Assembly (NCBI GenBank): GCA_021324825.1
Contig: JAJPII010000029.1
Coordinates: 15,825-79,824, forward strand
DNA from: Spartobacteria bacterium
Lineage (GTDB): Bacteria > Verrucomicrobiota > Verrucomicrobiia > Chthoniobacterales > Chthoniobacteraceae
Direction: 5' to 3'
Length of the DNA: 64,000 nucleotides
Part shown: positions 928-43,794 of the stretch, one piece after another
Numbering within the stretch: the stretch's first letter is position 1
How the letters are laid out: every line of letters begins with the position of its first letter
Program-made: the position numbers and the translations under genes
Notes under the pieces: generated by a model
Seen by the model: the letters and a program-made list of their open reading frames with translations, nothing else
The model's database searches: none
What the model was told of the DNA's origin: nothing

Positions 928-1701
928 TCAAGGACGAACCGGACGGCGCATCGTAGCTTGAATTTGCTGGTTTTGGGCCGCAATCGCAGCTTGCGCATTG
1001 GCGGGAAAGGTCAGCATGATCCCGGCCTTCAACGGCTCGAATTTATAAGTCGTCGCTTCCTGGCCGACCGTCATCGCCACGGGCAGCCTTCTTTCCACTT
1101 CGATGCAGGCTACCGCCGGGATTTTCATCCCCTCGATATTCTCGCCAGCCTTGATCGCGGCGTTGATGTCTTCCTTGGTCCAACTCTCCAAACCACGAGG
1201 CAGGATTTTATCCTTGAAATACATGCACTCTCCATGGCCGGGCAACTTTTTGATCCCGGTGAAATTCGCCGCCGAAACCCAGGAGATATCCGTAAAGCGT
1301 TCATCAGCCGACCCCGGCGAAACGGCGGGCATTTTCCAGCCGGTGTTCATGATCACCTGGTAGGCGCCCTTCTGCCAGATTTCCATTTTGTTGCCGTTTC
1401 CGGAGAAGCTCACGAGGTGGATGATATCGCCCGTCTTCTGGCCTATGACCACGTTGGTGTAGTCCGGCTTGCCAGGCGCCGGCTTCGGCGCAGTAGAATC
1501 TTTGGTCAGACCTTTGTGAACGATCGTCCATTGGTAGAAATCAGGAATGGGATTTAAAAGGGGACCCGGCGGCAAAGGCGGAGGCGATGACTCGGATGTC
1601 TGGGCAGGCGGGGATGAAGGCGGGGGGGACGATGCCGGTGCTTGCTGCGCGGCAGCCGCCGCTGCCGTCAAACCAAGCGCGAAGAGGAGCAGGAATTTCA
1701 T
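928..1701 (-). CDS. Secreted hypothetical protein (signal peptide plus Pro/Ser-rich linker)
   Basis: 257-aa ORF. The N-terminus MKFLLLFALGLTAAAAAAQQ looks like a signal peptide and is followed by SSPPPSSPPAQTSESSPPPLPP. Its ATG overlaps the TGA of the upstream giant gene (ATGA at 1698-1701). I do not recognise the family. Confidence 0.55.
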   Translation of the reverse strand: MKFLLLFALGLTAAAAAAQQAPASSPPPSSPPAQTSESSPPPLPPGPLLNPIPDFYQWTIVHKGLTKDSTAPKPAPGKPDYTNVVIGQKTGDIIHLVSFSGNGNKMEIWQKGAYQVIMNTGWKMPAVSPGSADERFTDISWVSAANFTGIKKLPGHGECMYFKDKILPRGLESWTKEDINAAIKAGENIEGMKIPAVACIEVERRLPVAMTVGQEATTYKFEPLKAGIMLTFPANAQAAIAAQNQQIQATMRRPVRP

Positions 1702-9200: not shown

Positions 9201-12200
9201 GTGAGCGTGAATGCGCCCAGGCTCACAGAGCCTGAGACTGTCAGCGACGAGCTGGTCGAATTGTTCGTCCATGTCTGGGACTGGTTTAGAGCCACATTGG
9301 CTCCGATCGTCACCGGGCCTGCGTTGCTGTTCACAGTCAGACCGCCGGCTTCCAGGGTCAGCGTATTGCCATCGGCGTTGATGGTCACCGCGTTGGTTCC
9401 GGTAATCGCCGCGTTTGTGCCGCCGAATACCACGCCGGCAACGTCGAATCCCTGGCCGAGGGTATTGGTAAAGTTCGTGGCGTTGCTGCCCGAGAAGATA
9501 ACGGTGGTGTTCGCCTGCGGATACTCTTGCAGGAATTGAGTTCCGGCGACATCCGACGTGAAATTGGCTCCATTGCCGTTGGTCGCACTCCATGTGGTTC
9601 CCGCCGCGCCCGACCAGTAAGCTATGGCGGGGGCGGTGGCGCCGGAGGTAACCAGGAGCACGCTGGATCCGGTCACGGTCAGGGTGCCGCCCACGCCGAA
9701 GCTCAGGTTGTTCGCGTTATTGAGGGTGAGCGCACCTTCGGTAGCGCTCCCGCTCCCTGTTGAGAAGCCCGTTCCCGCGCCGGCGCCGAAGGTCATCAGG
9801 GTGTAAGTCGTGTTCGAGACGAGGCCAAAGTTCGTAATGTTGATCAGGCCGCCGCCGCTGTTCTCGGTGAACGTGCCGGTGATCGCGATCCGATCGGCAT
9901 TGTTGCTTTTGACCCCGAAATCCAGGATCGACTGGCCGGTCGAGCCGTCGCCGATGGTAAGGTTCCCAAGGGTGAGAACACTGGTTCCGCCATTAACCAC
10001 ATTGACAGTGCCTTGCGCCGGGGCGGTCGCGCCGCCCGCCACGGTGACCGTGCCGGCGATTTTGCCGCCGTTGGCGCCCAAAAGCGTTCCGCCGCCATTT
10101 ATGGCAACACTCGTGCCGGCGCCCAAAGTGCCGCTGACAAGGAGCGCTCCGCCGTTGACGGTGGTAGCGCCGGTATAACTGTTTGAACCCGACAGTGTGG
10201 TTGTCCCGGACGTATTGGTGACCGAGGATGTGCCGGTAATAACGCCGGAGGCGCTTTCCGTGAACGTCGCCGCATTGCTGATGGCGGTGCCGCCTCCGAC
10301 CCCGGAACCGAGAGTGCCCGTGAGGCTGAGCGTGCCGCCGTTGACGGTGGTCGCGCCGGTATAAGTATTTGAGCCTGACAGTGTGGTTGTGCCGCTGCCC
10401 GACTGGATGAAGACGCCCGTCCCGCTGATGATGCCGCTGAGCGTATTCGTGATGCCGGCGCCCTCGACCCCCGAGACAGTGCCGCTGTCGGCGATGGCGC
10501 CGCTATAGTTTCCGCTCGTGACCATGTCGAATGCCAGAGTAGCGCCCGCCGCCACCGTGGATGCGCTGATGGATGCAGTCGTGCTGGTCAGCAGGCCGAC
10601 GCCGTTGCCGATTTGCAGCGTTCCCGCGTTCACGGTGGTCGCGCCAGTGTAAAAGTTCGTACCCGAAAGAATCAACGTTCCGGTGCCCACCTTGGTCAGC
10701 GCGAGCTGATTCAAGGCAGCGAGGTCGTTGTTGTTAAGGGGGTCGCCGGAGTTGAGGTTATCTTTTATCACGCCTCCATAAGTCGTGCTGGTATTTAGCG
10801 CACCAACGCTAAGCGTCTGGACCTTCGTCGTCGACGTTTGCTGAAAGTGTCCCGCAATTTCTCCTGTGCCGGACAGCGAGCCGAGGTTGAACGTATTAGT
10901 CCCCGTCACGTCCGTTGAGAAGCCGCCGTTGATTACCCATGCCGCGCTCGCGCTGCCGGCACTAGCCGATGCCAACCTGACGTTGCCACCTGTGACCGTA
11001 ATGGTTCCGGTATAGCCGGAATTGTTTCCCCCCAACTCGAAACCGTTGGTGCCGACAGTTGCGGATAGGCCAAGAGCGCCACTCCCGGTAATATTGCCGT
11101 TTAGAACCAAGTTGCTGCCTCCAGCAGCGCCCGAAACGATCGAGGAAGCTCCGTTTACAGCGATGGCATTTGCCAGGGTGCTGTTCGCGGTGGTCGCTCC
11201 AGCACTGGTCAAAGTGCCGCCATTCATCGTCAGCGTGCCACTGCCGAGAGCTGTGGCATTGCCAACCGCTAACGTGCCGGAATCAAGGAAAGTGCCGCCG
11301 CTATAAGTGTTTGCGCCAGCTAGTATCACGGTGCTCGTGCCGGTAGTGGTTAACGCGGATGCAGTGCTGCCGTTGTTTGATATAATGTTATTAATCGTGA
11401 TTCCCGCAGTCTCCGCCGCGAGAACGAGTTCGCTGTTGGTCCCAATCTGCACATTAAGGGCGAACCCTCCTCCCCCAATTACGAGCGTCCCGGTCCCGGC
11501 ATTCATGATGCCATTGGCAATTAATAAAGTACCAGAGGTATTCGCTTGTTGGATCATTCCCGATCCCGTGTAGCGTATAGTATTGACGTTGCGCTGAAGT
11601 CCGGTAACGCCAAGCGTACCGGAGACGCTGATATCATAATTTACCGTAGGATTGTTCCCACTTGGAAGGCCGCCCCAAGCACTTCCGGCGGTCGACTCGG
11701 AAGTTGCGCCTGTATAGGCGATGATATTCGAGCCACCGGTCACTGTGGCATAGGTATAGCCGTTTGCCGAGTTGTTCGCGGCGGCGCCTGTGCCGCTGAC
11801 AATGGCCCACGGCCCCAGAATACTGTTCGTATTCGTCGTACCTGTAAGGATGCCGTTCGAGGCGCTCTGCGTGCCGGTGGGCAGAGTGAATACAACCGTG
11901 CCTCCCGTGTTGCGCGTGATCGCGCCCAGGTTCAGCGAGAGCGGGTTGGCTGTCGCGTTCGCATTCAGAGTGATGGCCGAGCCGCCGGAGTTGAAGGTCG
12001 CGCCGTTGAACCGCTGGCTGTTGGTGGCGTTGGCGCTCCCGGTCAGCTTCAGCGTGCCGCCGCCCATGACGAGGGCCGAACTGTTCGCGCCGTTATTGAT
12101 GATGTTGGTCGCGGGAGCGCCCGCGGCGGCGAAGTTCAGGTTCACCGTGCCGGCGTTGATCGTCGTTGCGCCGGTGTAGACGTCACTGCCGGAGAGCGTC

Positions 12201-12730
12201 AGCGTGCCACCGCCCGTCAAGGTCAAACCGTTGGCGCCGGAGATAACGGAGGCGATGTTCGCCGCGCCGGCGATATCAAGGTTGCCGCTGGCGCCGAGAA
12301 CGAGGCCCAGGGCGCCGACGCCATTTTGGATGGTCAGCGTTCCCCCGGATGCCACATAGAGAAGATCAGCCGCGTTGGGAGCCACGGAATTGCTTCCGCC
12401 ATTGAGGGTGATGGTTCCAGCCGCCGCATTGGAGTTTGTGATGACAAGGGATTGAGTGGCATCCAGGTCATTGAGTGTGGCGAAAACCAGCCCCGCGCCG
12501 TTGTCGTCCAAAGTGGTGGAAGTGTAGGCTCCCGAGAGGATGACATCCGTCCCGCTGGCGGCCGTGGGAGTGATGGCAGGCGAGTAGTTCGCGCCATTTG
12601 AAAGATCGGTTGCGGAGTTCGAGAATGTCGTCGCGGTATCCGCAGCCAATATCAGGCGCGGGGCGAAGAACGCGGCCACGATTGCGAGGAGGAAGGCGAG
12701 GCTCTTCGTCAGAGGGGTGAACTTGTTCAT
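6296..12730 (-). CDS. Giant autotransporter-associated beta-strand (PATR) repeat adhesin with C-terminal PEP-CTERM sorting signal
   Basis: 2144-aa ORF. Signal peptide MNKFTPLTKSLAFLLAIVAAFFAPRLILAADT. Dozens of repeats of the type GxGTLxLSGSNTYTGATTVNGGTL. C-terminal VPEPTTILAGVLLVGLLGYRERKRL gives the PEP motif, a TM helix and a basic tail. Confidence 0.85.
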   Translation of the reverse strand: MNKFTPLTKSLAFLLAIVAAFFAPRLILAADTATTFSNSATDLSNGANYSPAITPTAASGTDVILSGAYTSTTLDDNGAGLVFATLNDLDATQSLVITNSNAAAGTITLNGGSNSVAPNAADLLYVASGGTLTIQNGVGALGLVLGASGNLDIAGAANIASVISGANGLTLTGGGTLTLSGSDVYTGATTINAGTVNLNFAAAGAPATNIINNGANSSALVMGGGTLKLTGSANATNSQRFNGATFNSGGSAITLNANATANPLSLNLGAITRNTGGTVVFTLPTGTQSASNGILTGTTNTNSILGPWAIVSGTGAAANNSANGYTYATVTGGSNIIAYTGATSESTAGSAWGGLPSGNNPTVNYDISVSGTLGVTGLQRNVNTIRYTGSGMIQQANTSGTLLIANGIMNAGTGTLVIGGGGFALNVQIGTNSELVLAAETAGITINNIISNNGSTASALTTTGTSTVILAGANTYSGGTFLDSGTLAVGNATALGSGTLTMNGGTLTSAGATTANSTLANAIAVNGASSIVSGAAGGSNLVLNGNITGSGALGLSATVGTNGFELGGNNSGYTGTITVTGGNVRLASASAGSASAAWVINGGFSTDVTGTNTFNLGSLSGTGEIAGHFQQTSTTKVQTLSVGALNTSTTYGGVIKDNLNSGDPLNNNDLAALNQLALTKVGTGTLILSGTNFYTGATTVNAGTLQIGNGVGLLTSTTASISASTVAAGATLAFDMVTSGNYSGAIADSGTVSGVEGAGITNTLSGIISGTGVFIQSGSGTTTLSGSNTYTGATTVNGGTLSLTGTLGSGVGGGTAISNAATFTESASGVITGTSSVTNTSGTTTLSGSNSYTGATTVNGGALLVSGTLGAGTSVAINGGGTLLGANGGKIAGTVTVAGGATAPAQGTVNVVNGGTSVLTLGNLTIGDGSTGQSILDFGVKSNNADRIAITGTFTENSGGGLINITNFGLVSNTTYTLMTFGAGAGTGFSTGSGSATEGALTLNNANNLSFGVGGTLTVTGSSVLLVTSGATAPAIAYWSGAAGTTWSATNGNGANFTSDVAGTQFLQEYPQANTTVIFSGSNATNFTNTLGQGFDVAGVVFGGTNAAITGTNAVTINADGNTLTLEAGGLTVNSNAGPVTIGANVALNQSQTWTNNSTSSSLTVSGSVSLGAFTLTGSGAGATTISGNIAGSGGVIQAGSGTLTLTGSDSYTGTTAVTAGLLQIGNGVSGSISNTGTSTVAAGATLAFDMATSGSYGGKIAIANSGTVAGIETAGITNTLGGVISGSGGFAQSGAGTTILTATNTYTGGNAITGGTVSISADPNLGATASAVTLNGGAVATTAGITDTHAFTIGPSGGTIDVTTTGQYYFHTANTLLGSGTLTVTGAGTLTANTGNLRVDQTNTFSGNVVLQSGGIFESGTTGAIASSGTFFINNNGELALQGSPATTLLNTIIVNGGTNSVLSFENGNGGNYAGPITLNANVTIGLRDWYNYGAQINGTISSGISGVGGLTTSSGTATASGTLTLTGTNTYAGTTTINSTSALQLGNGGATGALSSSSAIVDNGAFIIDRNNAVTQGVDFNNTITGGGGFTQLGSGTTTLTGSNSYTGATTVSAGALQIGNGVSGSISNSSASTVAAGATLAFDMANNTSYTGTIADSGTVAAIETVGISNTLGGVISGAGVFIQSGSGTTTLAALNTFTGNMVINSGTVAINTVAAGVNGTTSGIGSLNTASRTVTVNSGATLALLAANELGTGGSTTVPLTAIILNGGTFSTGSQTGAGGFWNLVGPLTLNGGTVNVGTGANNTNFQGLALYGTVTVGGSTASVIQNFSGSTSGSNGVELTATGGQITFNVASTGAVGPDLTVSTALLNSQSTSTAAGLIKSGLGVMSLTGSSTYTGATTVNGGTLALGRAGVAGNAAGGTLGGSTPITVNTGGTLLVSASSAIGTGSTMTLASGTLALSKNEGAGASVTGNTFSGFQNTGGLLSGTSVSTGSTVTTGASLNGIGALTLTANSTIDFKNTAETVVFNGYTDNGKLLNVINYSNTTALSSGYTSSGVDGTDDRLIFNIAGGLTTTQLNDISFNGVQGAVEIQLGNGSNFYEVTAVPEPTTILAGVLLVGLLGYRERKRLIGMRSRLVAKKV

Positions 12731-13400: not shown

Positions 13401-13853
13401 ATGGCTAACCGCCCGTTACGTCTCGACCGGGTTTTTCAGACGCATGGGGAGGCTTTGTTTTTCGTGACGTTCAATACGCATAGGCGCGCGGCCATTCTGG
13501 CATGCGAGGCGGTCCATGCCCGCTTTGTCGCTTTCGCGCGGGAGTCGGAGGGGCGGAATATCGCGGTGGGGCGCTATGTGATCATGCCGGATCACGTGCA
13601 TTTGTTCGTGCAGGGCGGGGCGGGGTTCGTCCTTTCCGGCTGGATTCGGATGCTGAAACGCAGTCTCTCACAGGCAATCGCCGCCGGACCGCCCCACTGG
13701 CAGGAGGGGTTTTTCGATCACCTGGTGCGCCACGATGAGAGTTACGCCCGGAAATGGGATTACGTGCGGGATAACCCGAGGCGCGCGAAGCTGGTGCGGG
13801 AGGAGGAGGAGTGGCGGTACCAAGGTGAGGTCGTTGTTATTGACCGGGCGTGA
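13401..13853 (+). CDS. REP-associated tyrosine transposase (RAYT, IS200/IS605-like Y1 HUH transposase family)
   Basis: ORF 13236..13853. The 5' part of that ORF translates the REPIN, so the ATG at 13401 (MANRPLRLDRVF...) is preferred. HUH motif PDHVHLFV (cac gtg cat at 13593-13601). C-terminal WDYVRDNPRRAKL carries the Tyr motif. REP doublets flank both sides. Confidence 0.8.
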   Translation: MANRPLRLDRVFQTHGEALFFVTFNTHRRAAILACEAVHARFVAFARESEGRNIAVGRYVIMPDHVHLFVQGGAGFVLSGWIRMLKRSLSQAIAAGPPHWQEGFFDHLVRHDESYARKWDYVRDNPRRAKLVREEEEWRYQGEVVVIDRA

Positions 13854-13857
13854 TGGT

Positions 13858-13972
13858 TGTAGAGGCGCTTGTGCCAAGCGCCTTTTTTTGGGATAGGCGG
13901 CTGGCACAGCCGCCTCTACAACCGGGGATAGGCGGCTGGCACAGCCGCCTCTACAACCGGCCTCTACAATGC
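13858..13972. repeat. REPIN doublet plus a perfect 35-bp tandem duplication of the right REP unit
   Basis: tgtagaggcgcttgtgccaagcgcct, then ggataggcggctggcacagccgcctctacaaccgg twice in tandem (13891-13925 and 13926-13960), then a partial third copy cctctacaatg. Confidence 0.85.
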
Positions 13973-14482
13973 TTCGGTTAGCCGGATGGCTGTCGCGGCG
14001 AGGTTTTCGATGCGGGTTCTGACTTCGGCGTTGATTTCGTCGCCGGCGAAGTCGGCGCCGGAGCCGTAGACGTACCGGGGGATGATGACGCATTCGAAGT
14101 CGAGCATGAGGCTGTTGGCCAGGGGCATGGCGGACATGTAGCTGCGGTGGCCGCCCGCGGCGCAGAGGAAGCCGACGATTTTGTCGTTCCAGGCTTCGCC
14201 GGTGAGTTCGATGAGGTTTTTGGCGAAGCCGCTGGTGGAGTAGTTGTAGATGGGGACGGCGAGGATGACGCACCGGGCGGCGGCTATGCGGGCCTGGAGG
14301 GGGGCGACGAGGGGATGCCCGTAGGCTTCGGCGGCGTCGCAGAAGGGGAGGGGCAGGCGGCGGGCGTCGATGTACTCGGCTTGGACCCGGGTGAGGAGGC
14401 GCTCGTGCAGGGCGAGGGCGAGGGCGCGGCTGCGGCTGGCGGGGCTGAGGCTGCAACTGATGATGAGGAAGTCGCCTTTCAC
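13964..14482 (-). CDS. NAD(P)H-dependent FMN reductase family protein
   Basis: 172-aa ORF. LIISCSLSPASRSR at the N-terminus and AVPIYNYSTSGFAKN are typical of the FMN_red family. The stop codon TAG is supplied by REP-derived sequence (cattgtagagg). Confidence 0.75.
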   Translation of the reverse strand: MKGDFLIISCSLSPASRSRALALALHERLLTRVQAEYIDARRLPLPFCDAAEAYGHPLVAPLQARIAAARCVILAVPIYNYSTSGFAKNLIELTGEAWNDKIVGFLCAAGGHRSYMSAMPLANSLMLDFECVIIPRYVYGSGADFAGDEINAEVRTRIENLAATAIRLTEAL

Positions 14483-14573
14483 AGGGGGGAAGGGTAAAGA
14501 AGAGGGGGCGGGATGGGAAGGGCATTTTCCCGTGGCGCGTGGCGCGCATCTAGCTCACTTTTGTGGCTCATTA

Positions 14574-15815
14574 ATGAGAGGAGCGCGTTCATCCCAGACA
14601 AGCCCGGCGGTTCCCATTCCGATCCTGCTCATCGAGGATAACCTGGAGTTCGCGGGGTTGGTGGAGGCCATCCTCGGGACGGGGAGCATCGCTTTCAAGG
14701 TGCATTGCGCGGATAAGCTCCAGGCGGGGCTGGAGATCCTGGCGACGGAGGAGATCGCGCTGGTGTTGTGCGATTTGACGCTGGAGGATTCTTCGGGCCG
14801 GGAGACGTTTGACAGGGTGCGGACGGCGGCGCCGGGGGTGCCGGTGATCGTTCTCAGCGGGTTGGACGATGAGTCGCTGGCGGTGGAGACGGTGCGGCTG
14901 GGGGCGCAGGATTACCTTGTAAAAGGGCAGTTTGATACGCAGAGTCTGGCCCGCGCGGTGCGCTACGGCCTGGAACGGAATGCCCTGGAGTCCCAATTGG
15001 CGGCGTATGCGGAGGAACTGCGCCGGAAAAACGCCGAGATGGAGGCTGAATTGAAGATGGCGAGGGAGCTCCAGCGGGCTTATCTGCCGGAGCAGCACCG
15101 GCGTTTCCCGGCGGCTGGGAGGGCTGGTTCGGAGATCCATCTTTCGTACCGTTACCAGCCGGCTTCGAAGATCGGCGGGGATTTTTTCGACATCGTGGAG
15201 ATTTCCGAGACGGAGATCGGGGTCTTCATCTGCGATGTGATGGGGCACGGGGTGCGGGCGGCGCTGGTGTCGGCGATCCTGCGCGGGCTGGTGGAGGAGT
15301 TGAAGCCGGTGGCGGGGAACGCGGGGGCATTCCTGTCGGCGGTGAATCGCGGGTTGCTGTCGAGCCTCGCGCATGCGGAAGACCAGATTTTCGCGACGGG
15401 TTTTTATATGGTGTTGGACCTGGCGCGGCAGGAGTTGCACTTCGCGAACGCTGGGCACCCGAGTCCGCTCTGTCTGAACCGCGCCACGGGGACGGCGACG
15501 CCGATCCGCCCTCCCAACCGGGGTTGCGGGCCGGTGCTGGGGATGTTCGGGGGGGCGCGCTACGAGGTGTTTCACAAGGCGCTGGGCCCGGAGGATTTGC
15601 TGGTTCTGTTCACGGACGGCTTGTATGAGGTCGAGGATGGCAACCGGGAGCCGTACAGCATGGAGTCGCTGCCGGCGGCGCTGGAACGGCGGAGTCTGCT
15701 CGAGCCCGCGGAGTTATTCGACGACCTGCTTGCGGAGATACAGGAGTTCTCGGCGAATCACGAATTTGAGGATGACGTTTGCCTGGTGGGTTTGGAAGTG
15801 AAGTCCGGGGGATGA
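14574..15815 (+). CDS. Response regulator receiver fused to PP2C/SpoIIE-type phosphatase (RsbU-like)
   Basis: ORF 14370..15815. The upstream part is antisense to the FMN reductase gene, so the ATG at 14574 is preferred. Receiver motifs ILLIEDN...LVLCDLTL...VIVLSG...DYLVKG. A coiled linker is followed by SpoIIE-type GGDFFD...CDVMGHG...FTDGLYE. Confidence 0.8.
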   Translation: MRGARSSQTSPAVPIPILLIEDNLEFAGLVEAILGTGSIAFKVHCADKLQAGLEILATEEIALVLCDLTLEDSSGRETFDRVRTAAPGVPVIVLSGLDDESLAVETVRLGAQDYLVKGQFDTQSLARAVRYGLERNALESQLAAYAEELRRKNAEMEAELKMARELQRAYLPEQHRRFPAAGRAGSEIHLSYRYQPASKIGGDFFDIVEISETEIGVFICDVMGHGVRAALVSAILRGLVEELKPVAGNAGAFLSAVNRGLLSSLAHAEDQIFATGFYMVLDLARQELHFANAGHPSPLCLNRATGTATPIRPPNRGCGPVLGMFGGARYEVFHKALGPEDLLVLFTDGLYEVEDGNREPYSMESLPAALERRSLLEPAELFDDLLAEIQEFSANHEFEDDVCLVGLEVKSGG

Positions 15816-16846
15816 GGGTTCTTTTCGGCCCGGATTTCCGGCATCTGGTTCAGTACCAGCAACTGCTGGCGGACGCGCTGGGGGCGGGAGGGGTTGACGT
15901 CGAGTTTTTGCAGGGGTATCGGCGGCTCCTGCCGATGACCCGCGGGGTGCGGGCGGCGCGGCCGGATGTGTTCCACCTCCACTTCCCGGTGCACTACATT
16001 CGCTGCAACGGGAAGCTGGACGAGGCGAGGAAGTATCGCTTTTTCGCGGATGTCTGGCTGGCGGCGAGGGCGGCGCGTCTTGTTTATACGGTTCACGATC
16101 TTTACCCGACCAGCTACGCGCAGGATAAGGCCGGCAACGCGGGGCAGCATTATCTGCTGCGGCGGGCGGCGGGGCTGATCGTCCATTCGGAGGAGGCTCT
16201 GAAGCAAGTTCTGGAGATTGGGGGCGTTCCGGCGGAGAAATGCACGGTCATCCCGCATGGCGATCTTTCGGCGCCGATGGGGCAGCCCATCCCCCGCGCG
16301 CTGGCACGCGCGCAGGCGGGGTTCCAGGAGGGGGAACGCATCTGCCTCGCGCCGGGGATAGTGACGCCCAACAAGGGGCTGGAGGAATTGATCGCTTACT
16401 GGAAACGGGAGAAGCCGGATGCCATCCTCCTGATCGCCGGGCACGCCCACGACGGCGGCTACGGCCAGCGGCTGAACATGCTCGCCTCCGGGGTTGCGAA
16501 TGTCCGCCTGCGGCTCGGGTTCGTCTCCGACTACGATCTGAAGGTGCTCTTCTGCGCGGCGGATTGCGTGGTCATCAATTACCGGACGATCTTCACCTCG
16601 GGCGTGGCGAGTCTGGCGCGTTCCTTCGGGACGCCCCTGCTGCTGCCGGAACGGCTGAAGACGGTGCATCTGCTGGAGCCGCATCCTTCGGTGGTGCGAT
16701 TTGGCGAAGGGGACTTCGGGGTGAAGCTGGCGGAGACTCTTTCGCTCACGACGGATTACGCCGCCGCGGAGGAATGGCGGAATGCGACCGCCTGGGACAA
16801 GGTCGCCGCCAGGACGCGGGCGGTCTATGAATCCGTGACTTCGTAA
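15812..16846 (+). CDS. GT-B fold glycosyltransferase (GT1/GT4-like)
   Basis: ORF 15779..16846. The start at 15812 (MRVLFGPDF) overlaps the upstream stop (ATGA). The C-terminal half (PNKGLEELI...LLIAGH...FCAADCVVINY) is typical of retaining GT-B enzymes. Its 3' end overlaps the convergent PPTase gene by 22 nt. Confidence 0.6.
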   Translation: MRVLFGPDFRHLVQYQQLLADALGAGGVDVEFLQGYRRLLPMTRGVRAARPDVFHLHFPVHYIRCNGKLDEARKYRFFADVWLAARAARLVYTVHDLYPTSYAQDKAGNAGQHYLLRRAAGLIVHSEEALKQVLEIGGVPAEKCTVIPHGDLSAPMGQPIPRALARAQAGFQEGERICLAPGIVTPNKGLEELIAYWKREKPDAILLIAGHAHDGGYGQRLNMLASGVANVRLRLGFVSDYDLKVLFCAADCVVINYRTIFTSGVASLARSFGTPLLLPERLKTVHLLEPHPSVVRFGEGDFGVKLAETLSLTTDYAAAEEWRNATAWDKVAARTRAVYESVTS

Positions 16847-17454
16847 GAGCGAACGGCGAGCGGTTTTCCCGCGACGACCACGGCGGCGGCGTAGCGGGCT
16901 CCGAGTTCGGGTTCGAAGAGCGACCACCGGGCTTCCTCGAGCGCGGAAGCGACGTCGATTTCCTCCGGGGGAAGGGAAAAGCCTTTGCCGACAGCCTTGA
17001 GGTAGGCCTCCTTGCGCGTCCATAGCTTGAAAAAATCCTCGCCTTCGGAAAGCAGGGCGCGCTCCCGGGGCGCAAAGACATTTTCCAGGGCGGGGAAGCC
17101 GGGCCTTCGAAATTCCACGTCGGCGCCAAGTTCCATTTCCCGGGAGAACGCGAAGAGGGCGAGGCTTTCGGAATGGGACATATTGAACTTCAAGGTCCCG
17201 CCGTCCAAGGCCGGTTTGCCATAAGGCGAACGGATGAAAAGCGGCTCCGCGCCCAGCCAGGATGCGAGCAGGAACCGCAACCACCCGTGCGCGGCGATGA
17301 AGCGCGCCCGGTGACCGGGAAAGCGGAAGCGCGACGCGCGGGCGGCTTCCCCGGAGTCAAGCGTGCGCTCGAATCTCCGCAGGGCGTCTTCCTCGAGGTC
17401 GAGGCGGGCGTGGACGACGTGGACTTCGCCGTCCGCGAGTTGCGGCGGAGTCAC
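16825..17454 (-). CDS. 4'-phosphopantetheinyl transferase, Sfp type
   Basis: 209-aa ORF. Motifs FNMSHSESLALFAFS, GADVE and WTRKEAYLKAVGKG. The GTG start overlaps the upstream stop (GTGA at 17451-17454). It is the last gene of the NRPS-PKS operon. Confidence 0.8.
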   Translation of the reverse strand: MTPPQLADGEVHVVHARLDLEEDALRRFERTLDSGEAARASRFRFPGHRARFIAAHGWLRFLLASWLGAEPLFIRSPYGKPALDGGTLKFNMSHSESLALFAFSREMELGADVEFRRPGFPALENVFAPRERALLSEGEDFFKLWTRKEAYLKAVGKGFSLPPEEIDVASALEEARWSLFEPELGARYAAAVVVAGKPLAVRSYEVTDS

Positions 17455-19967
17455 GCGGAGGCGTCCAGGCAGGCTTGCAGACGCTCCGTCAGGACGGTGA
17501 GATTCGAATAAACGGTGATCGCGGTGAAATGCCCGCCCGGCACCACGTGGACGGTCAGGCGCCTTACCACCGTTTTCCAGTTGAAGGTCGGATCCTCGCA
17601 GCGGATGCCGGGGTCCGGCTCGCTTTGCCGCAGGAGAAAGACCTTCCCGTCATAACGCCGGGGGATGTAGGCGCAGACCGCTTCGCGATACGTCCGCGAA
17701 ACGTCGAACTTCTGTTCCACCGGCTCCCCGGGGGCTTCGCCCGCCGGACGCGGGGCGAACAGCCTGCCGATGCGCCGGAGAATGCGCCCGGTTTTCCTCC
17801 GGATGCGGGCGAAGGCCGTGGCGGCGTCCGATTGCACGATATCGCGCAGGGCGGCCATGTGGTGGCGGAAGGAGGCGTTCGCGAAGATGCACGCCTGGCG
17901 CCATTTCAGGAAGAGCAACTGGCGGGAGCGGTCATTCATCCGGTGCATGCCGCCCCAGAGAGCCACGGCGGTGAGAAGCGGCTTGAACTGGATGTTGATC
18001 GCATCCACCAGGACGAGGATTAGGCAGGCGACTTTCTTTCCCTGCGCCTCCAGTTGCCGCGCCATCTCGAAGGCCACCAGGCCGCCGTTGCAGTAACCGC
18101 CCAGGTAGTACGGGCCGTCCTTCTGCATCTCGAACAGGATTTTCAGCCGGGAAGCGGCCATCGCCTCTATCGTCTCGGGCGCGGGCCGTCCGTCCCAGCC
18201 GTGGGGGTCGATCTTGTAGAAAGGGCGGTCTTTCCTCATGCGGCGGGCCAGGTTTATACAGTAGAGGCCGCCGTCCAGGAAATCGCCGTGCAAAAAGAAA
18301 AACGGCGGCTTCGTCCCCTCGGCCTGCACCTTGGTCACGGCGAAGAACTCCGAAAGGTGCTCGATGGTCGCGCCGTGGGACAACGCATCGGGCGTCAATT
18401 TGCGGCCGATGATCTTCTCGACCCGCGCGCACATCGTGGCGGCCAGGGCCGGGCTGCCTCCCAATTGGAAAAAATCGTCGGTTATCCCAACGGGGCGCGC
18501 GTGGAGGAGGTCTTCCCATATCTCGACGAGACGCTCCTGCATCCAGCCTTGCGGCGGGATGCAGGGGCGGTCGCGCGGCGGGGTTCCGTCGGCCTCGCCC
18601 GGAGCAAGGCGGCGTCCCCTGCCCGTCACGAGAAGCGGCAGTTCGGAAAGGCGGGCGTGCGGCGCGGCGACGACGGCTTCCAGCAAGCCGTTGAAATGCG
18701 TGCCGATGAGCCGGATGCGCTCGGCGTCAAAGATGTCGGTATTGTAGTTGAGGGCGCCGTCGATCCCGTCGGCGCGTTCGGAGAGCGAGAGCGTCAATTC
18801 GTATTTCGCCACGGGGCTGTCGATGGAGACGGGAGAGAGGGTCAGGTTTCCCATGGGCCGGCCGGAACGCGGCGCCGCGCGCAGGGAAAAGAGCGCACGG
18901 CAGGGCGGGATGGAATCGGCTTCCTCCAGGAGCATCTCGCACGGAAGGTCCTGGTTATCGTAAGCGCCCTGGACGGTGTCGCGCACCCGGCCAAGGAAGT
19001 CGGCGAAGCGGGGATCGCCCGCAAGGCTCGTCCTGAGCAGCAGGGTGTTTTCAAAGAGCCCGATGAGACCTTCCACGCCCGGCTGCGACCGGTTCGCCAC
19101 GGGCGAGCCGACGACGATGTCCTCCTGGCCGCTGTACCGGGAGAGGAGAGAATAGAACGCCGCCAGGAGCAGGGAAAACAACGTGACCCCCTGCTCTCTT
19201 CCCAGCGCGCGCAAGTCCTCCACCAGGGCCGCGGTCAGATCGAACCGCTCCGTAGCGCCCTGGAAATCCCGCTGGACGGGACGCGGGTGATCGGAAGGCA
19301 ACTGGAGCGCGGGCGCGCCGCGCAGGCGTTCTTTCCACCAGGCGAGTTGCCTGGTTATCTCCTCGTTCTGCACCGCGGCGCGCTGCCATTCCGCGAAATC
19401 CCCGTATTGGATCGGGAGTTCCGGCAGCGGGGAAGGCAGGCCCGCGTCGAACGCCTCGTAGAGCGCGGCCAGCTCGCGTTCCAGGACTTCGCGCGAAGCC
19501 GCGTCGGTAATGATCTGGCTGCTGTTGACCAGGAGGATGTGTTCGCGCTCGTCCAGGCAGAGGAGCCGCGCCCGGAACAACGGCGCCTCCCGCAGGTCGA
19601 ACGGGGTCTGCACTTCCTCGTCAATGAGCCGCTCGGCCTCGGCGCGCCGCTTTCCGGCGTCGAGGATGCGCAGATCGACGGCGGGCAGGAGAAGGGGCTT
19701 CGGCGGGAAGACGAGTTGAACCGGCCTCCCCTCGACGGAATTGAAGGCGGTGCGGAGGATTTCATGCCGGCGCGCGATTTCGGAGATCGTCTTCTCAAGG
19801 GCCGGGACGTTCAGCGGCCCTTCGAGGCGGAAGGCTTCCGGCATGTTGAAGGGAGCCGACCAGAGGCGCTGCTGCGGGTAGGAGGCGGCGAAGACAAAAA
19901 TGTCCTCGGTGTTCGCGTCGGCCACTCCGCCCGTCCATTGATGGGACGAAAGATCGGGGCGGCTCAT
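17451..19967 (-). CDS. NRPS release protein: degenerate condensation-like domain, degenerate carrier-like domain, thioesterase with Cys nucleophile
   Basis: 838 aa.
- C-like domain, aa 20-445 (nt 18633-19910): C1 motif YPQQRLW is present, but the C3 motif reads SQIITDAAS (nt 19494-19520) instead of HHxxxDG.
- Carrier-like domain, aa 475-545 (nt 18333-18545): DDFFQLGGSPALAA, so Pro sits at the canonical Ser position.
- Alpha/beta TE, aa 553-830 (nt 17478-18311): FFFLHG, nucleophile elbow GYCNG (Cys626 = TGC at 18090-18092), GGHFT His813. Confidence 0.85.
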   Translation of the reverse strand: MSRPDLSSHQWTGGVADANTEDIFVFAASYPQQRLWSAPFNMPEAFRLEGPLNVPALEKTISEIARRHEILRTAFNSVEGRPVQLVFPPKPLLLPAVDLRILDAGKRRAEAERLIDEEVQTPFDLREAPLFRARLLCLDEREHILLVNSSQIITDAASREVLERELAALYEAFDAGLPSPLPELPIQYGDFAEWQRAAVQNEEITRQLAWWKERLRGAPALQLPSDHPRPVQRDFQGATERFDLTAALVEDLRALGREQGVTLFSLLLAAFYSLLSRYSGQEDIVVGSPVANRSQPGVEGLIGLFENTLLLRTSLAGDPRFADFLGRVRDTVQGAYDNQDLPCEMLLEEADSIPPCRALFSLRAAPRSGRPMGNLTLSPVSIDSPVAKYELTLSLSERADGIDGALNYNTDIFDAERIRLIGTHFNGLLEAVVAAPHARLSELPLLVTGRGRRLAPGEADGTPPRDRPCIPPQGWMQERLVEIWEDLLHARPVGITDDFFQLGGSPALAATMCARVEKIIGRKLTPDALSHGATIEHLSEFFAVTKVQAEGTKPPFFFLHGDFLDGGLYCINLARRMRKDRPFYKIDPHGWDGRPAPETIEAMAASRLKILFEMQKDGPYYLGGYCNGGLVAFEMARQLEAQGKKVACLILVLVDAINIQFKPLLTAVALWGGMHRMNDRSRQLLFLKWRQACIFANASFRHHMAALRDIVQSDAATAFARIRRKTGRILRRIGRLFAPRPAGEAPGEPVEQKFDVSRTYREAVCAYIPRRYDGKVFLLRQSEPDPGIRCEDPTFNWKTVVRRLTVHVVPGGHFTAITVYSNLTVLTERLQACLDASA

Positions 19968-22900
19968 AGAGTCGCCCGCGTGACGCGCCTTGCCGCGCGC
20001 GAGATTCCCACGATGGGCGGAAGCGCCTTGCGTCCGCCGGCGGTTTCCGGCTTCGCGGCAAACGGGTTCTCATAACCGAACTCGGAGGCCATGTTCCAGG
20101 TGGCGGCGCTTAGGAAGTCTTCCGCGTATTCGGCCTTCCATTGGTCGGCGACGTCGGGGCGGACTTCGTTGAACTTCAGGAAATTATGATCCCCCACTTG
20201 CGGCGAGAGCGGATGTATCCCGTCGGTCATCTTCTTCTGCTTGTCCTTGTACGGCTCGATCATCCCCGGGTGAAACGCGATTCCCAGGAACCGGCAGACG
20301 GCTTCCATCGCCGGCCGCGGGTCGCCCACGATGTCTTCAAACCGCACCCGATGCCGCCGCTGCGCCGGGATGCCCGAAAGAAACTCGCGGATGTTTTGAT
20401 GGGAGATCAGCCAGGTCAGCTCGCCCAGCCGCCGGGCGGAGAAATTCTGTTTATGCCGGTACGGAGATTCGAGGATGAACCGCCCTTTCTCATAGGAACG
20501 GATCATGCCCAGCGGGTGGCGAAGCAGGTGGATGTAGAGCGCGTCGTCGAACCACTCCTCGGCGCGCCGGAGGACGTCGAGGTCCATGGCGTAGTCGGGC
20601 GATTTGTCCACCAGAACCTTCGGGGCCACCCACTCCTGCATCTGCCGGTAGAACTCCTGCACGGAAGAGCCCGCGTTTTCCAGTTCCTCCATGATCCTGC
20701 CCGCCTCGTCCATGTCGCACCCCTTTATCTCCATGACGGCGCGCAGGACGCCCTCGAGCATGTATTTGTCGTAGCCGGTATAGACCTTCTTGCGCGTCGC
20801 GAGGTTCTGGAACCCCAGGAGCTGCAATTCCGGCGGGGCGAACAACGCCGGGTTGCCCGCGAGCATTATCCTGCACAGGGTCGAGCCGGAACGCATCGGG
20901 CTGAGAATGAAGACGGCGCGCGGATTTTTCCTCTTCGCGGGGACGGCGGCGGATTCGACCGGGCGGACGGACTGGACGATGAGGCGCAACTTCTCTTCAT
21001 CCCCTCCCCCGGCGGACTCGGGCGCTTTCGTCTCCGGCGCGGTTCCGAAAACCCGGCGGACGCTCTTCTCGTAATTCGTCTCCAACAAGCCGGAAAGCTC
21101 CGCGAGCGTCGGCGCTTCGAAAAGGACGACCAGGGCGACGTGTTCATCCAGCAAAGCCTGGAGCTTTTGGACGAACCGCAATCCAAGGAGGGAGTTGCCC
21201 CCCATCTCGAAGAAGTTTTCATGTAATCCTATGCGGTCCAGGCCGAGGTTCTCTTTCCACATCTCCGCGAGCTTCGCCTGGAGCGGGGTCAGCGCCGCTT
21301 CCGCGGTCTCCCGGAAGACGGCGGCCGCGGGCGCGGGCAGGGACCGGCGATCCACCTTGCCGTTGGCGGTCAGCGGCAGCGCCTTTAGCGAGACGAAGGC
21401 GGAGGGGATCATGTATTCGGGGAGATGATGCTTGAGGGCGCTCCTCAAAGCGGTCGAGAGGTCTTCTCCTTCGTTTTTCGGGACGACGTACGCCACGATC
21501 CGCTTGTCCCCCACCCTGTCCTCGCGGGCGAGGACGACCGAGTCCTTGACCAAGGGCTGCCGCTCGAGCGCGGCGTTGATCTCGTCCAGCTCGATCCGGA
21601 ACCCGCGGACCTTTACCTGGAAGTCGATGCGCCCCATGTAAAGGATGTTGCCGTCCGTTGTCCACTTCGCGAGATCGCCCGTGCGATAAAGCCGGCCTCC
21701 GGGGCTGAACGGATCGGGGATGAATTTCTCGTTCGTCAGTTCGGGCCTGCCCCAGTAACCGCGCGCGAGGCCCGCGCCTCCTATATATAACTCCCCCGCC
21801 ACGCCCACCGGCACGGGCTGAAGCCTGCCGTCGAGCAGATAGATGGCGGTGTTGGCTATGGGCCGCCCTATGGGCACGACTTCCGATTCCCGCCTGCAAG
21901 TCCAGTGCGTGACGTCGACAGAGGCCTCCGTCGGGCCATAAAGGTTGTGAAGCCGGGCGCGCAGGACGGAGAAAAACCGTTCCTGAAGATCATGGGAAAG
22001 CGCTTCGCCGCTGCAGATGACATCGCGCAGGGCGGCGCATTTCCCCGCGTCCCGCGCTTCGAGGAAAACGGCCAGCATGGGCGGGACGAAGTGGATGACG
22101 GTTATCCCCTCCCCCATGATCGTCGCGGCGAGGTAATCGCTGTCCTGGTGGCCGCCGGGCTTCGCCATGACCAGCCGCGCCCCCGCGAGCAAAGGCCAGA
22201 AGAACTCCCATACCGAAACGTCGAAACTGAACGGCGTCTTCTGAAGGACGCGGTCTTCCGCGCCGAGGCGGTACGCGTCCTGCATCCAGAGAAGGCGGTT
22301 GCAGATGCCGGAGTGCGTGTTCATGGCGCCCTTCGGCTTGCCGGTGGAACCCGAGGTGTAGATGACGTACGCCAGGTTCTCCGGCCTGGTTGCGGAGGTT
22401 GGCGCTTCGGTTGATTCGCGCGCGATGGCGGACCAGCCCGCGTCCAGGCAGACGACCTCCGCGGAGTGCGGGGGCAGGCTGAGGCGCTCCTGCGTCAGGA
22501 GAACGGGGATGCGCGCGTCGGCGATCATGAAGGCCAGGCGCTCCGGCGGGTAACCGGGGTCGAGCGGCACGTAAGCGCCCCCGGCCTTCAGGATGCCGAG
22601 CAGGCCGGTCACCATCTCCAGGGAGCGTTCCATGCAGACGCCGACCGGCGAATCGGGGCCGATCCCCTTCCCTTGCAGGTAACGCGCCAGCTGATTCGCC
22701 CGGCGGTCCAGCTCCCGGTACGTGAGGCTCTTCTTTTCGAAAACGACGGCCACGGCGTCCGGCGTCCGCCTCGCCTGTTCCTCGATGAGGCGGTGCAGGA
22801 GCGCGTCCTTGGGATAATCGACGCAGGTGTCGTTCCACCGGACGAGGATCTGGTTGCGCTCGACCTCGTTCAGGAGCGGGAGATCGCGCACGTCGCGCGC

Positions 22901-25900
22901 GGCGTCGGCGACGACTCCTTCGAGGATCGTCTTGAAATGGCCCAGCCAGCGCAGGACGGTTTCGGGGTCGTAAAGGTCGCTGTTGTGGTCGCACTCGATG
23001 TCGAGCGCGCCGTCCTTCTCGGCGGCGTTCAGGTAAAGCTCGGCCATCGCGGTCGTGGCGGGGCCGCGATACGGCACGTGGCGGGTCAGCAATTCGACGT
23101 GGAGGCCGTCGAGGTTCTTGCGGAACTCCCCGCTTTCGAAGTTGAAGATGGTCGAGAAAATCGGCGCGCGGGCGGGGTCGCGCGGCAGGCGCATCGCATC
23201 GAGCAGCCGCCCGAAGAAGTAGTTCTGGCGCTCGGAAGCGCCGAGCACGAGATTCTTCATGCCGGTCATGTAATCGGCGAACGGCGCCTTCCCGTCGATG
23301 CGGCTCCGTATCGGCAGGACGTTGGTCGTGTTCGCGAACAGGGACGGCCCGCCCTCGAGCGTGCGGACGTCATCCTCGAACGGAACGCCGATGACCACGT
23401 CATCCTGCCCGCTGAGGCGATGCAGCAGGACGCCGAACGCCGCGAGGAGCACGTTGAAAAGCGAACAGCGCCGCGCGGCGGCGGCATGCCTCAAAGCGCG
23501 CGTGAACTCCGCGTCGAGCGTCAGCGTCTGCCGCTGCCCGCGGAACGTCAGGAAGTTCGGGCGGGGACGGTCGGCGGGCAGTTCCAGGACGGGGACGCCG
23601 CCCTTGAATTGCGCCAGCCAGTACGCTTCCGCCTCGGCGGCGTCCTCGCGGCGCCGGGCGTCCCGCGCGATGAATTCGCTCAACTGCATCGCGGGCGGCA
23701 GCGTCTTCACGCCGGAGTAAAGCGCGCAGAGTTCCTCCAGGAAAACCCAGTAGGAAGGGCCGTTCCCCATAACGTGATGGAAGGTCAGCAGGAGCAAATG
23801 CTCCTTCTCGTTGACGTTCAAAAGAGCCGCGCGGAAAAACGGCCCTTTCAGCTTCTCGAAAAGTTCGTTCTCGATCGGGAAAAGAGCCTCGGGCTCTCCC
23901 GAAAGTTCGCGGAAATCGACTGTTCCGGCAGGAGCGATGTTCTGGGAGGAACCGTCCTCCGAAATCGTGGCGCGCAACGCTTCGTGGCGACCCGCCAGCG
24001 CCTGCAGGGCCGCGCGCAAAGCCGCGACATCCAGCGGGCCGCGAAGGCTGAGCGTAACCGATTCGTGATAGGCCCGCGCCGCCTGGTCATCCATGCCGGA
24101 AATCCATAAGCCCTGTTGCGCGGGCGTCAAAGGCAATGTGCGCGCGGCGGGGGTCTTCTCGTAGCGGCTCTTCAGTTCGCTTAGGGTTGTAAGGCTTTGC
24201 AGGACGGAACGAGTATCAATTCCGAAGTCGATGAAGCACCCCACCTCGTCCACTCCGATTCCCGCCAGGCGATCCATGACGCGCGCGCAGGAATCGGGCG
24301 TGCCGATCAGCGCCTTGCCCTCGACGTAATCCGTGAACGCAGTATCCAGGAGGTATTCGATGTCCGCGGGATCGACCTCGACCTGGCCGCCTTCGCTCTC
24401 CATTTTCTTGCGGCTGTTGTCCAGGAACGAACGGAGATATTCGCGGAGCGGCCCCCGCGCGGTCTCGCGGGCCGCCGCGAGGTCCGGGCCGACAAACGTG
24501 TGCAGGAGGATCGTCACATGGCCGGCGGCCGGGTCGTGCCCGTGCCGGACGAGGGAGTCGCGGTACAGGGCGATCTTTTCCGCGACCTCCTCCACCTTCT
24601 GGTTCATGAGGTAGCCGAGAACGCCGACGCCCATCTCGCCCGCCTTGACGAACGAGTCCGGGTGGATGCATGTGAGCCATATCGGAAGGTCCTTCCGCAT
24701 CGGCAGCGGGTGGAGCTTCACCTGCACGTCGTTGCCCGCGCCGCCCTTCATCGGGACGGCCTCCCCTCGCCAGAGCTTCCTGACCGTTTCCAGACCTTCG
24801 AAACAAAGCTCGCGCCGCCGGTCGAACGCCGCGGGAGCGAAGATGAAGTCGTTCGGATGCCAGCCCGAGGCGATGGAAAGCCCGGTGCGGCCCTTCGAGA
24901 GATTATCGACGACCGACCACTCCTCCGCGATGCGCGCGGGATGGTGCAGCGGGAAGACCACGCTGCCGCCCCGAAGCTGGATTTGCCCGGTCTCCCGCGC
25001 AAGGGCGGCGGCCAGCACGGAGGGATTCGGCGAAAACCCGCCCACCGCGTGGAAATGGCGTTCCGGCAGCCAGACGGCGGTGAACCCATGTTTGTCCGCG
25101 AATTTGGTTGCTTCAAAGAGGAGGTCGTATTTATCCGGCTGGAAGCCCGCCTCATAGTTGCCGAAGAAATAGAGGCTGAACTGCACCCCGGACTTCGCGG
25201 GTCCGGGTCTCGGAACGGGAGGAGCGACAGGAACCGGCTCCAGGCGAGGCGGAGGAGCGGGAGGGGTTTCCGATTCTTCGCCGGGAAGAAAACCTCCCGC
25301 CTTCATTTCCAGCACGCTCTCCTTGAACGCGCGGATGACGAACTCGACATCGGCCTCCGTATGCGCGGTCGAGAGGAAGCAGGGGCGGCCTTCCCAGACG
25401 TGGACGCCTTTTTCGCGCAGATGGAAGAAGAGCAGGCTCGGATACTTTATCTCCGGGCTGAAATCGAAATAGAAGAGGGAGCGGAACCAGATGATCCGCA
25501 GCGGCGCCTGCCGCTCCGCGAAGAAGGCGTTCAGCGTCCCGGCGAAACGCGCGGTTCGCGCGGCGAGTTCCTCCTGAAGGCCGGGGCCGGATTTCTTCAA
25601 ATGTTCGAGGATGGCGGACGCGGCGGCCATCGCGAGCGGATGGCGCACATAGGTGCCCGCGAAGAACGTCACGCCGACCTCGGGGAACGAGGCGTCGCCG
25701 TAATCCCACGCGCCGCCGTCCAGGGCGTCCATGTATTCCGCGCTGCCGCAGAGCGCGCCGATGGGCATGCCGCCGCCGATGATCTTCCCGTAGGTCGCCA
25801 GGTCGGCCCGGATGCCAAAGAGCGCCTGCGCCCCGCCCGGATGCGAACGGAACCCGGTGATGACCTCGTCGAAAATGAGCGCCGTTCCCGCTTCCTTCGT

Positions 25901-42106: not shown

Positions 42107-42107
42107 T

Positions 42108-43766: not shown

Positions 43767-43794
43767 CTCTCCTCAACCAACAAAACCAACAACC

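Follow-up and report, generated by a model that had tools for sequence, protein, structure and literature searches.

What remains of a termination module once its adenylation domain and the catalytic residues of the neighboring domains are gone, and what would the remainder be kept for? This question is raised by an 838-aa protein encoded on the minus strand of a 64,000-nucleotide stretch of Spartobacteria bacterium DNA (GenBank assembly GCA_021324825.1, contig JAJPII010000029.1, positions 15,825 to 79,824; hereafter the window). The protein consists of a condensation-like domain (C*), a carrier-like domain (T*) and a thioesterase (TE) with a cysteine nucleophile, and its gene follows that of a large assembly-line protein ending in a sulfotransferase (ST) domain. 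The account that we favor, with a probability of about 0.6, is that it is the remnant of a canonical nonribosomal peptide synthetase (NRPS) termination module, made of condensation, adenylation, carrier and thioesterase domains (C-A-T-TE), and now works as a scaffolded Cys-TE release protein.

Lost motifs and conserved folds

The features of the release protein, all on the minus strand, are as follows.

17451-19967, minus strand: C*-T*-TE release protein, 838 aa (open reading frame (ORF) and Pfam)
18627-19886, minus strand: C* domain, a condensation fold without the catalytic His (aa 28-447; Pfam, PDB matches and AlphaFold2)
19860-19880, minus strand: C1 motif YPQQRLW (aa 30-36; translation)
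19494-19520, minus strand: degenerate C3 motif SQIITDAAS (aa 150-158), S150 and Q151 replacing HH (translation and alignment)
18339-18545, minus strand: T* domain, a carrier fold without the attachment Ser (aa 475-543; PF00550, E 4.3e-07, and AlphaFold2)
18444-18464, minus strand: LGGSPAL (aa 502-508), with Pro506 at the Ser position (translation and alignment)
17454-18308, minus strand: type I thioesterase domain with a Cys nucleophile (aa 554-838; PF00975 and AlphaFold2)
18090-18092, minus strand: TGC codon of the nucleophile Cys626, within GYCNG (aa 624-628; translation)
18003-18005, minus strand: Asp655, candidate triad acid just past strand beta6, 'position I' (alignment)
17619-17621, minus strand: Glu783, conserved acid after beta7, 'position II' (alignment)
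17523-17537, minus strand: GGHFT (aa 811-815; translation)
17529-17531, minus strand: codon of the catalytic His813 (translation and alignment)

Pfam assigns Condensation to aa 40-447 (E 3.5e-84), PP-binding, weakly, to aa 478-541 (E 4.3e-07) and Thioesterase from aa 572 (E 7.9e-21). A sequence-only reading of this locus had described degenerate condensation and carrier motifs followed by a cysteine nucleophile, and each of its motifs and coordinates was reproduced on translation of 17451-19967. When the protein is aligned with its relatives, the His columns of HHxxxDG correspond to S150 and Q151 and the carrier Ser column to P506, with S505 falling at the H/D/N position. The possibility that a canonical HHxxxDG or GGxS motif lies elsewhere in these domains was also considered; realignment to relatives keeps the degenerate register for both. 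A sequencing error at 18090-18092, which would have turned a Ser codon into that of Cys626, is excluded, because the identical protein was recovered on three contigs, from five sources, and the Cys is invariant in orthologs.

Despite these losses, both domains retain their architecture. C* reads SSQIITDA where a competent condensation domain carries HHxxxDG, the second His being replaced by Q, and yet has the two-lobed condensation fold, with motifs C1, C2, C4, C5 and C6 intact. Its best PDB sequence matches are the C domains of Txo2, Txo1 and TycC6. The AlphaFold2 model of the full-length 838-aa protein has a mean predicted local distance difference test score (pLDDT) of 87.3, with values >90 over most of aa 21-447, and Foldseek superposes C* on TycC5-6 and DhbF with root-mean-square deviations of 3.4 Å and 2.3 Å, respectively. 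T* reads GGSP instead of the GGxS of a holo-competent carrier (GGNP, without Ser, in orthologs; GGHS or GGDS in canonical relatives) and is modeled as a four-helix bundle whose helix II begins at P506, the position of the carrier Ser.

Three orthologs, P0002, P0003 and P0121 (70% identity), carry H[NP]xxxD, GGNP and GGYCNGG. The close relatives of the window protein come from soil and peat metagenomes, and the surroundings recovered for P0003 and P0121 represent the same cluster as in the window, in one version without an aminotransferase domain. Conservation was gauged by per-domain identity instead of the ratio of nonsynonymous to synonymous substitutions, because synonymous sites are saturated between proteins that differ this much (about 70% identity). 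Between the window and its orthologs, C* is 69-73% identical, as compared with 67-72% for the active C domain, and T* 62-73%, as compared with 71-75% for the active T domain. These values suggest that C* and T* are not junk and that their folds are kept under purifying selection. Collectively, the motif losses, the conservation among orthologs at the level of active domains and the confident AlphaFold2 folds bear out the earlier proposal that C*-T* is a docking scaffold and not a module; its role as a retained, non-catalytic architectural adaptor is well supported.

How this state may have arisen can be followed in the relatives. The proteins P0026, P0015 and P0004 are canonical C-A-T-TE modules with HHxxxD, GGHS, Val-like A codes and the same Cys TE. 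A second clade devoid of the A domain, P0051 and P0064 (C-T-TE, about 40% identity), shows HQxxxD but keeps GGHS or GGDS; P0051 is preceded by a protein ending in A-T-ST, and the contig of P0064 is too short for context. Compared with P0026, P0051 is 72% identical over C and 80.5% over T-TE, residues 461-959 of P0026 being missing. P0121 is similarly 62% identical to P0004 over C and 78% over T-TE, the A domain likewise missing. Simple neighbor-joining trees of the C and T-TE regions, computed without support values, set the two A-less clades apart, each beside or within canonical modules, which argues that the A domain (~500 aa) was lost at least twice, in two separate clades. Other A-less C-T-TE proteins (P0136, P0173, L003 and L004) have all their motifs intact, which makes the window protein the most reduced member of a graded series. 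A natural series of steps in the dismantling of an NRPS termination module is thereby available, with C-A-T-TE, intact C-T-TE, C*(HQ)-T-TE and C*-T*-TE all found.

Some other relatives deserve mention. The C-A-T-TE protein P0004 (L083:10001-14149), from a cluster without ST, falls inside the window clade near P0002/P0121 in the T-TE tree and is sister to this clade in the C-domain tree; P0004 and P0121 share their metagenome of origin, and the discordant positions of P0004 suggest recent domain-level recombination between the two clusters. P0007, P0012 and about 30 similar proteins of ~1300 aa form an A-less C-C-T-TE family, many with a GGYC[ML]GG Cys TE, found mainly in Acidobacteriota-type metagenomes. 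Three cyanobacterial candidates, L052, L032 and L069, were rejected as full-length matches: in each, the match is divided between two ORFs or high-scoring segment pairs, and the TE has a Ser nucleophile.

The upstream assembly line and its sulfotransferase

The biosynthetic genes are all encoded on the minus strand, and the release protein shares them with the following features.

29767-31539, minus strand: fatty acyl-AMP ligase-acyl carrier protein (FAAL-ACP) loading protein, 590 aa (Pfam AMP-binding, AMP-binding_C and PP-binding)
19964-29770, minus strand: 3268-aa polyketide synthase (PKS)/NRPS with the order ketosynthase (KS)-acyltransferase (AT)-ACP-aminotransferase (AMT)-luciferase-like oxygenase (LLM)-C-A(Ser)-T-ST and a conserved C-terminal tail (Pfam)
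20066-20914, minus strand: CurM/olefin synthase (OLS)-type sulfotransferase domain, aa ~2953-3235 of the 3268-aa protein (PF13469, E 3.8e-25, and phmmer)
19967-20065, minus strand: conserved basic C-terminal tail (..LPPIVGISRAARRVTRATL) of the 3268-aa protein, likely a docking element for C*
16825-17454, minus strand: Sfp/HetI-type phosphopantetheinyl transferase (PPTase; PF01648 and NF042922 HetI)

The 838-aa ORF overlaps the upstream 3268-aa ORF by ATGA and the downstream PPTase ORF by GTGA. The statement that ST and Cys-TE lie on consecutive genes is thus correct, the ST ending the 3268-aa protein, whose gene carries the ATGA overlap with the TE gene. The FAAL-ACP gene, or a fused equivalent, is also present in the orthologous loci L086 and L001, and in all related loci whose contig includes the next gene, the PPTase follows the TE gene directly or after one short ORF. 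The specificity-conferring (Stachelhaus) residues of the A domain of the 3268-aa protein, as read from the sequence, are DVWHISLVDK, identical in both orthologous clusters, which we take to be a serine code close to that of EntF; a β-OH on the carrier-bound residue is predicted from it. The domain order of this protein agrees with that of PuwE (KS-AT-ACP-AmT-Ox-C-A-PCP), which in puwainaphycin biosynthesis builds a 3-amino-2-hydroxy acyl unit (PMC4219810). Searches of the literature turned up no account of this cluster family, nor of a cassette of the type ST / C*-T*-TE.

Upstream proteins from ST-containing clusters share the tail motif, P-I-x-R-[LI]-[SA]-R-x-x-RRV, of which a looser form is found on that of the ST-less cluster L090; in the 3268-aa protein, the tail is 76% identical to those of the orthologs. 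This recurrence across clusters points to a docking element, which would pair with a downstream C or C*.

The PF13469 match covers aa 2953-3167, and phmmer retrieved the STs of CurM (4gbm, E 4.5e-63) and OLS (4gox, E 1.1e-52), the RSGST loop for 3'-phosphoadenosine-5'-phosphosulfate (PAPS) and the PPE motif being conserved. The ST reads PPELQLL (aa ~2993-2999, window ~20770-20790) where CurM and OLS have PPELHLL; in this ST clade, the Glu is retained and the His is Gln or Met throughout. Six clusters were compared. The ST occurs together with the LLM domain in five of them (the window, L001, L086, L088 and L091), both are absent from L090, and the Cys-TE is present in all six; same-clade Cys-TEs from clusters without ST are those of L090 and L083. 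One lineage has Ser as its first amino acid, and the corresponding A-domain code of the other (DAWQFGLIDK) is that of Gln. The P0026 (L088) and P0015 (L091) clusters of the latter read KS-ACP-AMT-LLM-C-A(MT)-T-ST / C-A-T-TE / PPTase, with a complete canonical C-A-T-TE after the ST. Because a complete module follows the ST there, the ST would not be a release partner of the TE. Since it is present exactly where the luciferase-like oxygenase is present, the most likely and parsimonious target of the ST would be the oxygenase-installed 2-hydroxyl of the acyl chain, the ancestral ST presumably acting mid-line, before further condensation.

Two features of the Gln-code lineage may be added. The upstream proteins of L087, L088 and L091 have, before the ST, an A domain with the Gln-type code DAWQFGLIDK and an embedded methyltransferase domain. 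The KS-ACP module of L088 and L091 has no Pfam AT match, which suggests loading in trans by an AT, and the sequence of L087 ends before this region.

Could the ST and the TE nonetheless act together, as they do in CurM? In such an eliminative release, the ST would sulfonate the β-hydroxyl of the carrier-bound Ser and the TE would release the chain with loss of sulfate, giving an N-acyl enamide (decarboxylative) or a dehydroalanine (β-elimination)/aziridine-type product. T-ST-(C*-T*)-TE would then be the functional equivalent of the CurM ACP-ST-TE, with C*-T* as an enabling adaptor. To our knowledge, this chemistry is so far undescribed for NRPS termination. The ST is clearly of the CurM/OLS type, the A-domain code is that of Ser throughout the window clade and loss of the last module leaves the TE as the next active domain after the ST; the same ST and tail, however, precede a full C-A-T-TE where the first amino acid has the Gln code and lacks the hydroxyl, and the ST co-varies with the LLM oxygenase domain, not with a hydroxy amino acid. 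The TE does not point to CurM either: it is 73-78% identical to the TE of P0004, from a cluster without ST, and the CurM TE is absent from the phmmer list (E<=1) and from the 50 Foldseek matches listed, the TE of the NRPS AB3403 being the nearest. Thus, although an ST-TE off-loading logic is documented for CurM and OLS (PMC11730487), its operation here is unlikely. If true, the loss of the last module would have re-created a T-ST-...-TE unit on a peptide carrier, with the dead C*-T* as its adaptor.

Slightly less probable again is that C* has acquired a new catalytic role, in which it would, for example, eliminate sulfate from the chain on the upstream carrier, dehydrate this chain or close a ring in it. 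C* is indeed as conserved as the active C domain, its other motifs (C1, C2, C4, C5 and C6) are intact and the second His is lost in both A-less clades. Of the columns that are conserved to at least 85% across 17 canonical relatives, just two are altered in both clades, namely this His and an Arg from C7, a region that aligns poorly. The second His, found in 17/17 canonical relatives, is replaced by Q/N/P/N in the window clade and by Q/Q in the other; with the His pair reading SQ, HN, HP and HN among close orthologs, such variation fits relaxed selection, and not a new catalytic residue, as far as the alignment tells. Non-canonical C-type domains, AmbE and the X domain, are among the matches of C*, but the dehydrating AmbE C domain was retrieved at E 1.7e-25 and ordinary elongation C domains at 3.2e-80.

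The cysteine thioesterase and chain release

The TE has the attributes of a type I assembly-line thioesterase: GYC626NG, H813, conserved D655 and E783 and an α/β-hydrolase fold. In the TE-only AlphaFold2 model (mean pLDDT 91.1), the strand preceding Asp655 ends at residue 652; position I is D or E in close relatives. The best fold matches are NRPS/PKS TEs, in the Foldseek order AB3403 (E 6e-14), then NocB, Pks13, Skyxy and FAS TEs; phmmer ranks the oocydin branching TE 7r0x first (E 1.4e-10), followed by AB3403 (E 1.8e-10, GGWCFGG). When alignment A2 was searched as a profile against the PDB, C and A domains made up most of the matches and nothing was learned about the TE. Between the window and its orthologs, the TE core is 82-91% identical, the highest range in the cluster, Cys626 is invariant in alignments A1-A3 and the triad is invariant in orthologs.

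An exhaustive HMMER search identified 344 TE-family cluster representatives at E<=1e-30, and the nucleophile was tallied in the nearest representatives (50%-identity clusters) for which a score was possible (n=149). Cys occupies the position in 139 of these 149 and is followed by Asn in 108/139 Cys-bearing representatives; the His813 column is His in 139/145 relatives scored there. The lengths of the Cys-TE representatives, from <450 aa to >1500 aa, fit C-A-T-TE, A-T-TE, C-T-TE and stand-alone TEs, and ten members of 800-1000 aa checked by Pfam comprise eight A-T-TE and two C-T-TE proteins. Its prevalence among the nearest representatives indicates that Cys is the defining conserved state of a large clade and neither a neutral variant nor a rare specialization. 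The suspicion that it might be a neutral substitution within an ordinary hydrolytic TE group is not borne out by this clade-wide conservation. With Cys as the conserved state and AB3403 as the top fold match and second sequence match, the TE can be placed in an AB3403-like Cys-TE clade. AB3403 is the sole other structurally characterized NRPS TE with a Cys, and the view that Cys-TEs are rare holds for characterized enzymes (PMC11298585), although not in sequence space, as shown by the 139/149 tally.

The presence of a Cys-TE next to an ST had been linked to strained-ring release of the SulM or ObiF kind. A specialized enzyme would then form a SulM-like β-lactam, dependent on prior sulfonation, or an ObiF-like β-lactone from the terminal Ser. 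Explicit criteria have been set for SulM-like TEs (PMC11298585). In favor of such release are a terminal β-hydroxy amino acid (as in ObiF), an ST encoded in the cluster, Asn after the Cys (Y-C-N here, Q-C-N in SulTE; PMC11298585) and a conserved candidate acid after beta7, Glu783, at the 'position II' of SulTE and ObiF. The Cys-Asn pair is not diagnostic, being found in 108 of the 139 Cys-bearing representatives, of many architectures, and an Asp/Glu is present at position I too, as in AB3403. Furthermore, the A domain has a code for Ser, not for 2,3-diaminopropionate (Dap), the ST is a CurM-type domain, the SulM and ObiF1 TEs are absent from the sequence matches (E<=1) and from the 50 fold matches listed, and same-clade Cys-TEs occur in clusters without any ST. 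Release of this kind is therefore very improbable. These data also correct the genome-mining heuristic by which a Cys-TE plus a sulfotransferase means monobactam-like chemistry, the Cys-Asn TE clade being independent of sulfotransferases.

The least credible possibility is that of a decaying relic, in which either C*-T* or the entire protein would have lost its function and release would be done by something else: catalytic residues are gone from two domains and the A domain is deleted, but the reading frame of 838 codons is unbroken, identity across orthologs is 62-91% for C*, T* and TE, at or above the level of active domains, the TE triad is invariant, gene order and 4-nt overlaps are kept in the two orthologous clusters recovered with context and the AlphaFold2 models are confident.

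According to the scaffolded-release account, a PuwE-like lipopeptide assembly line would originally have ended in a C-A-T-TE termination module, whose adenylation domain, of ~500 aa, was then deleted. Since there was no longer an acceptor amino acid to condense, the C domain would have lost its catalytic His, and in the window clade the carrier Ser would have disappeared too. C*-T* would pair with the C-terminal tail of the upstream T-ST protein, positioning the TE near the upstream carrier. The TE (Cys626/His813/acid), its Cys nucleophile being inherited from the large AB3403-like Cys-Asn TE clade, would then take N-(3-amino-2-hydroxyacyl)-Ser straight from the upstream T domain, on the 3268-aa protein, and free the chain by hydrolysis or simple cyclization. 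The CurM-type ST would sulfonate the 2-hydroxyl set by the luciferase-like oxygenase domain.

Several points weigh against this account. Transfer from T to TE would have to pass from one polypeptide to another and bypass both the ST and a dead C-T pair, a demanding geometry. The clade of P0051 and P0064 has kept its carrier Ser, and its T domain may still be used, e.g., when loaded in trans, so that a pure-scaffold role may not hold for all A-less forms. The high conservation of C* fits a new, unrecognized catalytic role equally well. The β-OH of Ser mimics the CurM substrate, which makes the ST target ambiguous in the window lineage, and the co-occurrence of ST and LLM rests on six clusters only. 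Finally, the neighbor-joining trees lack support values, and the placement of P0004 inside the window clade by the T-TE tree suggests recombination.

Decay in two separate clades distinguishes the parts of a module needed for catalysis only from those kept as architecture, a distinction that helps in the design of truncated assembly lines and in the annotation of 'inactive' domains. The data also point to a family of small clusters, PuwE-like and predicted to make lipo-amino acids and lipodipeptides, in which a CurM-type ST is built into the assembly line. One member, the L086 megasynthase (L086:1452-10004), lacks the aminotransferase domain (394/441 AMT residues are gapped) and keeps LLM, ST and C*-T*-TE, and the family would therefore make both 3-amino and, presumably, 3-oxo variants.

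Around the cluster, a response-regulator/PP2C gene (SpoIIE, RssB-like; 14370-15815, plus strand) adjoins it in the window, L001, L085 and L086 and may act as its regulator. A GT4 glycosyltransferase gene (15779-16846, plus strand) lies between this gene and the PPTase in the window and L001 only. The ORFs opposite these two genes, at 15758-17284, 14589-15575 and 13668-14549 on the minus strand, were not retained as genes; they have no Pfam or NCBIfam match and are probably shadow ORFs. Farther away, the minus strand encodes a 2144-aa protein with 10 passenger-associated transport (PATR) repeats (6296-12730) and, beside it, a 1450-aa ORF without Pfam match (1698-6050). A block at 39749-54961 (plus strand), unrelated to the release protein, is devoted to nitrate/nitrite assimilation and the molybdenum cofactor. 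Its first part encodes an NMT1-like binding protein, an MFS transporter, a PP2C-kinase fusion and a siroheme nitrite/sulfite reductase, and the rest a flavodoxin-FAD reductase, an Fe-S/DmsC-like protein, a molybdopterin oxidoreductase, MoaA and MoeA.

Comparison with known systems

Like the window TE, AB3403 (ABBFA_003403; Acinetobacter baumannii, PDB 4zxh/4zxi) has the type I NRPS TE fold and a Cys nucleophile (GGWCFGG). Its triad Asp is at position I, after beta6, and its product is described as uncharacterized (PMC11298585). AB3403 differs in that its C-A-T-TE module is complete, both C and T being active, and in having Phe after the Cys, where the window protein has Asn; the two TEs are about 19% identical in the structural alignment.

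The TEs of SulM (sulfazecin) and ObiF1 (obafluorin) also have a Cys nucleophile, and SulTE shares with the window TE the Asn after the Cys and a sulfotransferase in the cluster. In SulM, the last A domain activates Dap, the A3 code being D-V-W-E-M-N-A-D-D with Asp at positions 8 and 9 (PMC12042044), whereas the window has DVWHISLVDK. SulM-like TEs combine Gln-Cys-Asn with an Asp at position II; the window TE has Tyr-Cys-Asn and acids at both D655 and E783. The ST of the window cluster is of the CurM/OLS type and differently placed. The criteria for SulM-like TEs also include a positive charge at two of the three Arg positions of SulTE (PMC11298585). The lid of the window TE is Arg/Lys-rich, and equally so in P0004, whose cluster has no ST.

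The ACP-ST-TE cassette of CurM and the olefin synthases resembles the window in having a homologous ST directly after a carrier and a TE as the next competent domain. The window TE, in contrast, belongs to another lineage, has a Cys nucleophile and sits on the next protein, beyond a dead C-T pair; the carrier-bound substrate is an acyl-amino acid; and in the sister clusters, which carry the same ST with a Gln code, a full NRPS module follows the ST.

The nearest functional analogy for C* may be the X domain of glycopeptide NRPSs, a dead C-type domain located after the last T and before the TE; the comparison is one of how C* would work. Both have a C fold with a corrupted HHxxxDG and would serve as a non-catalytic platform near the TE, and the X-domain structures 4tx2, 4tx3 and 6m7l are among the fold matches of C*. 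C* differs in being, by sequence, an ordinary elongation-type C domain (Txo1/2, TycC6), and no P450 or other trans partner is encoded near it.

A-less C-T-TE modules loaded in trans are known from module 9 of SyrE. The A-less proteins P0136, P0173, L003 and L004 have the C-T-TE architecture and Cys TE of the window protein and keep HHxxxDG and the carrier Ser; they could thus condense a residue loaded in trans, which the window protein, to judge from its motifs, could not. The C-A-T-TE modules P0026 (L088), P0015 (L091) and P0004 (L083) belong to the same C and T-TE families, with 53-63% identity to the window protein, 62-80% to other A-less forms and a GG[YF]CNGG TE throughout. P0026 and P0015 also occupy the same cluster position, after a protein ending in T-ST and before the PPTase, and all three modules have the A domain, the HHxxxDG and the GGHS that the window protein lacks.

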